64,000 nt of DNA from Heptranchias perlo (Eukaryota), in the NCBI RefSeq assembly GCF_035084215.1, contig NC_090364.1:12152001-12216000 (forward strand), written 5' to 3'. The notes beneath the pieces are model-generated. The model was not told where the DNA came from, did no database searches, and worked only from the letters and a program-made list of their open reading frames with translations. Made by a program: the position numbers and the translations under genes. Below, in pieces: positions 28,090 through 28,743 of this stretch (position 1 is the stretch's first letter; every line of letters starts with the position of its first letter).

Positions 28090-28683
28090 CTATATTTTGA
28101 ATGGAAATTCCTCAACGTACTTTCGGAGAGTTGGCACCAAGGGAAGGTTCCTTATGCCATCTGTCCCGAAATGGCAGATTATATTCTTTCTGCATAACTC
28201 CTGCAGTTTTGGAACGGGGTTCATCCGCAGGGGTTTAGAAAAGACGACAGAGACTCCGCCTTCGAACAGGAAGGGTTTCTTTGCTGTGCTGTCCATGCAA
28301 TACTCCAGGAGTTTCACGACGCAGTCAAAGTGGGCGTTATTGAACCAAAAGTGTTCTTTCTTGAACATAATCCGCATGCTGACCGGTTCCTTCTCAGCCC
28401 GGATGCTCAGGCTGAACAACTGGTCCGCCTGAGTGCTGTCCCGGACCAGAAAGGTGCCCACGGGCTCCGTTGTCAGCATGGCGTGCGCCCTCTCCACGGA
28501 GAGCGGCCCCCAGTAAAACCCGCTTTCGTTCAGGGTGCGCAGGGTCCGGTTGACCATCTCCCACTCCTCGTTCCGAAAGGTGCGAAGGTGGATCGGTGGC
28601 TCGGGCGGGCAGCGCTGGGATCGAGGTGGGTCGGGTTGTCGCACATTCGCCAGTGCATCCAGTGGTGCGCTCCCACCGACCAT
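28090..28683 (-). CDS. socs1: Suppressor of cytokine signaling 1-like protein (divergent SOCS1 paralogue), 197 aa, single coding exon
   Basis: KIR-like HLRTFR, SH2 domain SGFYWGPLSV..AH..L..EPVGTFLVRDS...FDC...LLE, SOCS box VPKLQELCRK...LPLVPTLRKYVEEFPFKI (human ends FPFQI). ATG in gagATGg context with an in-frame upstream TAA. Confidence 0.95.
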   Translation of the reverse strand: MVGGSAPLDALANVRQPDPPRSQRCPPEPPIHLRTFRNEEWEMVNRTLRTLNESGFYWGPLSVERAHAMLTTEPVGTFLVRDSTQADQLFSLSIRAEKEPVSMRIMFKKEHFWFNNAHFDCVVKLLEYCMDSTAKKPFLFEGGVSVVFSKPLRMNPVPKLQELCRKNIICHFGTDGIRNLPLVPTLRKYVEEFPFKI

Positions 28684-28684
28684 C

Positions 28685-28717
28685 TCAGAGAGTCCGCCAG
28701 TTCCAATGAGGCTCCAT
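28685..28717 (-). promoter_or_regulatory. Upstream ORF MEPHWNWRTL* in the SOCS1 5' UTR
   Basis: aagATGg at 28717. The TGA ends at 28685, one base before the main ATG at 28683. The frame stays open back to the exon start. Confidence 0.75.
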
Positions 28718-28743
28718 CTTTAACCTCCTCGCGGAAAAACGTC

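Follow-up and report, generated by a model that had tools for sequence, protein, structure and literature searches.

The SOCS1-like (SOCS1b) gene of the shark Heptranchias perlo was found to carry a ten-codon upstream open reading frame (uORF), placed in its leader as in a bird SOCS1a gene. Based on the comparison of these sequences, we consider it likely, with a probability of roughly two in three, that this uORF was inherited from a single SOCS1 ancestor and represses translation of the main ORF. Since the shark layout matches that of bird SOCS1 base for base, the putative brake probably predates the duplication that separated SOCS1a and SOCS1b. The DNA analyzed, referred to here as the window, is a stretch of 64,000 nt (GCF_035084215.1, NC_090364.1:12,152,001-12,216,000, forward strand).

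The gene occupies a single coding exon on the minus strand, with a coding sequence for a 197-aa protein at 28090..28683. The protein contains an SH2 domain (PF00017, E 6.8e-10), and its best PDB match is SOCS1 (6c5x, E 6.5e-31), covering residues 31-197, including the SOCS-box region; the Pfam SOCS_box family was not reported for it at E 0.001. Its closest relatives are 'SOCS1-like' proteins of sharks and rays (62-78% identity), followed by those of a caecilian, lungfish and frog, and its identity to SOCS1 proper is about 40%. In a tree of 41 rows, the shark gene was placed within a chondrichthyan SOCS1-like clade (100/99) and outside the SOCS1a clade (100/99), while the wider group of SOCS1b genes was weakly supported (84/45). 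The main text of Wang et al. (2019; PMC6368001) dates the SOCS1a/SOCS1b split to the 2R vertebrates, and the shark gene is the 2R-vertebrate SOCS1b of that study. The name SOCS1 in the title of the earlier note was accordingly corrected to SOCS1-like (SOCS1b), the clade being separate from that of SOCS1a; the term paralogue, used in its text, was appropriate. The same note knew of no description of this paralogue. The gene had already been described in the above paper, and it is for its uORF that no description was found in the literature searched.

Proteins of the SOCS1b type were also recorded for platypus, two turtles and reedfish (P0174, P0171, P0176 and P0161). For these groups the main text of PMC6368001 gives only one SOCS1, and SOCS1b is more widely retained than stated there. 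Three bird protein models (P0308, P0172, P0178) fuse SOCS1-like with NFAM1, which marks the two genes as neighbours; no NFAM1 match was found within the 64-kb window.

The coding exon begins with a 60-nt untranslated leader portion (28684..28743, minus strand). The splice acceptor preceding it (28744..28765) has a tract with pyrimidines at 16 of 19 positions and AG at 28745-28744, and no better pyrimidine tract is found near the boundary 28744/28743. At this acceptor, contigs of two organisms depart from the genome sequence. Two of them, originating from one sample (X1 record 1 and X3 record 9), match 27300-28744 with 0 differences and then continue with 29 and 28 extra letters, respectively, that do not follow the genome. 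Contigs of a related organism (X8, X6) break at 28746; record 26 of X8 aligns with 28077-28746 (32 differences, no gap) and has 346 further letters. None of the contig runs is on record as RNA, this label being a software guess, but a break that coincides with a canonical acceptor speaks for an origin from spliced RNA. The 3' UTR portion of this exon (27300..28089, minus strand) is also covered by contigs and extends beyond the stretch compared.

Exon 1 was not located in the contigs of the four runs. A candidate with a donor at 37630 gained no support, as the bin 37325-37725 had no cover in any of these runs. The region 37630-37750 (minus strand) holds this strong donor together with an ATG upstream of it, and a splice to 28743 would give a longer uORF of 33 codons that starts at this ATG; at least 19 further strong donors of the same kind are present upstream among those listed. 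Most of the shark and ray SOCS1-like proteins (clusters 1-5) have three or four RefSeq accessions per sequence, which suggests that several 5' leader variants are joined to a common coding exon. Lying wholly within the coding exon, the ten-codon uORF would be active whichever first exon is used.

Several other features of the window were recorded. A 1011-aa uninterrupted ORF resembling an endonuclease/reverse transcriptase (39586-42621), presumably of a CR1-type LINE, is probably a young copy, and many decayed copies are present elsewhere in the window. Long open frames on both strands of non-tandem DNA at 46708-47251 gave no Pfam match and may belong to a fragment of a retrocopy. There are also six minisatellite arrays with units of 22-69 bp (3600-5139, 10456-10971, 24804-25448, 45482-45904, 56402-56845 and 59225-59475).

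The uORF itself is located at 28685..28717 on the minus strand and encodes MEPHWNWRTL. Its ATG (28717-28715), the only one in the 60-nt leader portion of exon 2, is placed at -34 relative to the main start and has a strong context, with A at -3 and G at +4. The ten sense codons, including TGG (Trp) as codon 7 (28697..28699) and CTC (Leu) as the last (28688..28690), are followed by TGA (28687-28685). A single G (28684), which is both the base after the uORF stop and position -1 of the main start, separates this stop from the main ATG at 28683 (G at -3, G at +4), which opens the 197-aa ORF ending at 28090. The strong-context upstream ATG at 28717 and the frame stopping 1 nt before the main ATG, as claimed previously, were confirmed from the minus-strand sequence. 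The uORF frame is open from the start of the exon, and a TAA in the main frame at -39 (28720..28722) leaves no N-terminal extension of SOCS1b. In the third frame, the shark sequence is open across the whole leader and about 50 codons of the coding sequence (28530-28743), so that an exon-1 AUG in this frame would create an overlapping uORF like the one catalogued in human.

Direct comparison at the DNA level was made with a locus designated L001, which was obtained in a metagenome scan (80 of 94 confirmed loci; ten translated). It is the sole full-length, high-identity SOCS1 match among those 80 loci, and it groups with bird SOCS1a. Two other metagenomic loci (L002 and L004) were ruled out as SOCS1, being SOCS2- and CISH-like, while scans of viral contigs (2 loci) and genome contigs (none) were uninformative. 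The L001 leader contains (i) an ATG at -34, (ii) a frame of ten codons, MEDRIRWPRL, (iii) a TAG at -4..-2 (uORF at 925-957), and (iv) a G spacer (958). The start, length and stop position of the uORF are the same as in the shark gene, and the context of the upstream AUG is strong in both. The two peptides have Met1, Glu2, Trp7 and Leu10 in common (4/10). Different codons are used for Glu2, for Leu10 (CTG in the bird) and for the stop (TGA vs TAG), while Trp7 lies within a 5-base stretch that is identical in the two genes.

Identity between the shark and bird leaders was 16/34 in the region -34..-1 and 6/26 in the region -60..-35. Of the 4-fold degenerate coding sites, only 11/38 are identical, and neutral sites are therefore saturated. 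In L001 a TAG just past the predicted acceptor closes the uORF frame. The frame that is open from the first base of the exon, reported in the earlier note, is thus a true property of the shark gene which is not common to both. The third frame of L001 is stopped at -41 and -11. A main-frame N-terminal extension, considered as a possible driver of the conservation, was excluded by stops in that frame, located at -39 in the shark and at -48 in the bird. Judged from the sequences, what has been conserved is a uORF with a fixed length of ten codons within exon 2, which is more than a stop-N-ATG arrangement; at the DNA level, the deep homology is based on one SOCS1b locus and one SOCS1a locus, together with one trout cDNA excerpt. 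An ancient common geometry, proposed previously, is supported by the bird DNA and by the register of mammalian and eel-like fish protein models. The accompanying statement that the geometry rather than the peptide has been kept was too strong, since the -34 start, the ten-codon length and 4/10 residues match bird SOCS1a; Trp7 is incompatible with the frog and coelacanth SOCS1b models.

A wider but indirect test was provided by predicted proteins with N-terminal extensions, which reveal the leader as translated in the main frame and are informative on compatibility with the layout, the bases themselves not being fixed. A pattern search combined with visual inspection of the first 205 proteins gave twenty extended SOCS1-family models (two of them extended by one Met only), and one model was added later. 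All 10 of the 10 models from placentals, marsupials and an eel-like fish were compatible with ATG at -34, Trp7, Leu10 and a stop at -4, compared to a background of 44/73035 (0.06%) for ATG -34, Trp7 and stop -4 jointly. The stop at -4 was compatible with 17 of the 19 testable SOCS1-family models, or 10/12 when close relatives were pooled (p ~4e-5 with a 25% background); none of six SOCS3-type models fitted it. Of 15 testable models, 5 (four from teleosts, one from a turtle) were incompatible with ATG -34, as was the elephant-shark model, and several of the teleost models fit the stop and not the ATG. For a conserved-peptide uORF (nascent-peptide regulator), the pertinent observations are the 4/10 residues in common with bird SOCS1a, two of them and the stop written with different codons, and Trp7, which was compatible in 11/18 models.

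For the other SOCS1b-type models the fit was poorer: the stop was compatible in 2/4 (coelacanth and frog, as opposed to turtle and elephant shark; p 0.26) and Trp7 in 0/4. The turtle and elephant-shark models have no first Met and their misfits may be artefacts; model extensions can stem from introns or wrong exons. Among longer SOCS1b models, none had an informative leader, P0071 and P0083 being extended at the C end. A stop at -4..-2, which the earlier note proposed to score across jawed vertebrates, is present in the DNA of L001 and compatible with 17 protein models, with turtle, elephant shark and trout as exceptions.

How often such a layout arises by coincidence was estimated in two ways. 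In the window, 1095 of 127881 positions (0.86%) are preceded within 60 nt by some open frame that begins with ATG and terminates at -4..-2; this loose feature is rare to a modest degree only, so that the uORF stop in the shark gene, as first noticed, is weaker evidence than the match with the bird. An ATG at -34 followed by an open frame and a stop at -4 was present at 67/127881 positions, and at 5/127881 when TGG was required as codon 7. Shuffling of the leader gave the same layout in 317/500000 cases, and in 4/500000 with Trp7. It is quite improbable, in our estimate, that an ordinary short uORF of the shark coincides with that of SOCS1a, or that the two arose separately under pressure for low SOCS1. 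uORFs are common, there is one SOCS1b gene represented by DNA, and the remaining SOCS1b models are split evenly on the stop. However, the coincidence of start, open frame and stop is expected at ~5e-4 per position (~4e-5 with Trp7), and there is no reason to expect that convergent origins would settle on one identical start position.

The same positions could also be conserved as a splice or RNA-protein motif rather than as a translation element, with the TAG-G of SOCS1a resembling a second acceptor and the 5-base stretch around codon 7 being a possible binding site. Such an acceptor would agree with the AG of L001 (956-957) directly before G-ATG and would give the pattern of those teleost models that fit the stop and not the ATG at -34; the five identical bases would agree with a binding site. 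We regard this explanation as very unlikely. The shark stop is TGA, the proximal AG (28685-28684, minus strand) is preceded by pyrimidines at only 10 of 19 positions, and the leader is traversed by contigs from the acceptor (28744) onwards. The strong-context ATG at -34 in shark, bird and trout is left unexplained by a splice motif. Folding of the shark and L001 leaders was no better than that of shuffled sequences (z -0.85 to +0.97), which gives no conserved RNA structure and speaks against an RNA motif.

Translational repression by an inherited uORF can be outlined from the scanning model, which is established knowledge. Scanning ribosomes would reach the strong upstream AUG, which precedes the main AUG by 34 nt, and the majority would be expected to initiate there. 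With termination one base short of the main AUG, this codon would lie inside the terminating ribosome, and almost no distance would be left to reload initiator tRNA. SOCS1b would then be made mostly by the minority of ribosomes that leak past the upstream AUG.

The role of the stop can be assessed with the 3R socs1b cDNA of trout (positions 273-332 of Fig. S1 in PMC6368001). In the excerpt given in that figure, an ATG precedes the conserved Met-Val start by 34 nt and a Tyr codon stands where the uORF stop would be; the start has been kept and the stop lost. An invariant stop geometry, implied by the earlier note, is contradicted by this sequence. In the salmonid-type 3R socs1b (also P0185 and P0190), the change that removes the stop also creates an in-frame ATG at -3, giving a Met-Met-Val start, and makes the uORF an overlapping one. 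The upstream AUG at -34 looks like the core of the element. The position of the stop looks like a refinement that is strong and yet can be lost, since the overlapping version would repress too.

Instead of blocking the main start, the uORF might meter or conditionally deliver ribosomes to it by coupled termination and re-initiation at the AUG one base on, dependent for example on DENR/MCTS1 and on the last Leu codon. The exact one-base spacing, the fixed length and the last Leu common to the paralogues would suit this mechanism. PMC10275272 notes that re-initiation may be favoured over a short distance as long as factors remain bound. An action of DENR/MCTS1 on short uORFs that depends on the last sense codon is described in PMC11375166 and PMC11188067, which is a lead only. 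Against this stand the repression reported in the accessible mammalian literature, the trout socs1b that manages without the stop, the variation of the Leu codon (CTC, CTG) and the lack of a conserved RNA structure. We consider coupled re-initiation unlikely and retain the repressive uORF as the preferred reading.

The start-to-start distance of 34 nt is approximately one ribosome footprint, and we speculate that this spacing leads to queueing of ribosomes. Taken further, the SOCS1 uORF could have served as a ribosome-sized ruler since the vertebrate genome duplications: the terminating ribosome would cover the main AUG while the next one parks on the upstream AUG, slow termination would be self-reinforcing, and the peptide (Met-Glu-x4-Trp-x2-Leu) together with the one-base gap would set release versus restart. 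This extension of the model is doubtful. If true, it would place a conditional translational gate, switchable by cytokines or stress, on the main brake of interferon signalling, and would be of relevance to dosage in SOCS1 haploinsufficiency. Human SOCS1 is dosage-sensitive, as stated in the relevant section of PMC8375263.

Apart from this extension, the layout common to two paralogues with saturated silent sites marks a small number of key bases (the ATG at -34, positions -16..-14 and -7..-1) and suggests non-coding positions that merit attention in variant data for human SOCS1. The natural variants of the stop (TAG, TGA, and its loss in trout socs1b) offer material for the study of the one-base stop-to-start gap and of re-initiation. 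The comparison also separates an ancient ten-codon element from the young overlapping human ORF present in current catalogues.

In the literature found, repression by a SOCS1 uORF is a mammal-only observation. It is stated in PMC8375263 and PMC8481645, which cite Gregorieff 2000 and Schluter 2000. No paper on the conservation of the SOCS1 uORF beyond mammals, or on a SOCS1b uORF, was found within the scope of the search, which extended neither to subscription papers nor to the supplements of PMC7530721 and PMC13275300. In the main text of the ESUCA study of animals (PMC7530721), 'SOCS' occurs 0 times, and its supplement may bear on novelty. The portion of PMC3238403 covered contains nothing on conservation of the SOCS1 uORF. 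The main text of Wang et al. (2019; PMC6368001) uses 'uORF' 0 times and mentions upstream ORFs once, in general terms, without a description of the element. As far as these sources extend, uORF repression of SOCS1 is known, and no description was found of its evolutionary depth or of its SOCS1b version.

Ribosome profiling catalogues contain a different upstream frame. In the supplementary files of Sandmann et al. (2023; PMC10032668) human SOCS1 has an overlapping uORF of 43 aa (c16riboseqorf29, uoORF) and an internal ORF; the three SOCS1 rows in the six files do not include a ten-codon ORF. The 43-aa ORF, which starts in exon 1 and uses the third frame, extends 7 nt across the main start; its age class there is primatomorpha-young. 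Peptides of the overlapping SOCS1 ORF are listed in the accessible parts of Ouspenskaia et al. (bioRxiv 2020.02.12.945840) and PMC9776223. This human ORF is different from the ten-codon one. When the end of its peptide was read by hand, the leader bases obtained (A at -34, GG at -32/-31, T at -4 and GG at -2/-1) were found to fit the ten-codon layout.

Besides the described 2R SOCS1b gene, three known systems can be compared with the shark SOCS1b leader. The first is the repressive uORF of mammalian SOCS1, which is said to run from exon 1 into exon 2 and to end one base before the main ORF, as reportedly described in 2000 by Schluter (PMID 10679190) and by Gregorieff (PMID 10764816). The shark leader likewise has a uORF, an AUG-initiated frame in the spliced leader that terminates one base short of the main AUG; this spacing is also present in the bird DNA, and mammalian models fit the -34 ATG and the -4 stop. 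Unlike mammalian SOCS1, the shark gene is the paralogue SOCS1b, its uORF stop is TGA, and the common core starts inside exon 2. The second is human c16riboseqorf29 and the 5' overlapping uORF of Ouspenskaia et al., in which a translated upstream frame crosses the corresponding leader; the third frame used by the 43-aa human ORF is open in the shark, whereas it is stopped at -41 and -11 in L001. The third comprises the uORF1 of GCN4, the uORF1 of ATF4 and the targets of DENR/MCTS1, which, like shark SOCS1b, have a short uORF with a strong start context. In uORFs of this type, however, tens to hundreds of bases separate the stop from the next start (as given in the part of PMC10275272 consulted), compared to one base in shark SOCS1b.
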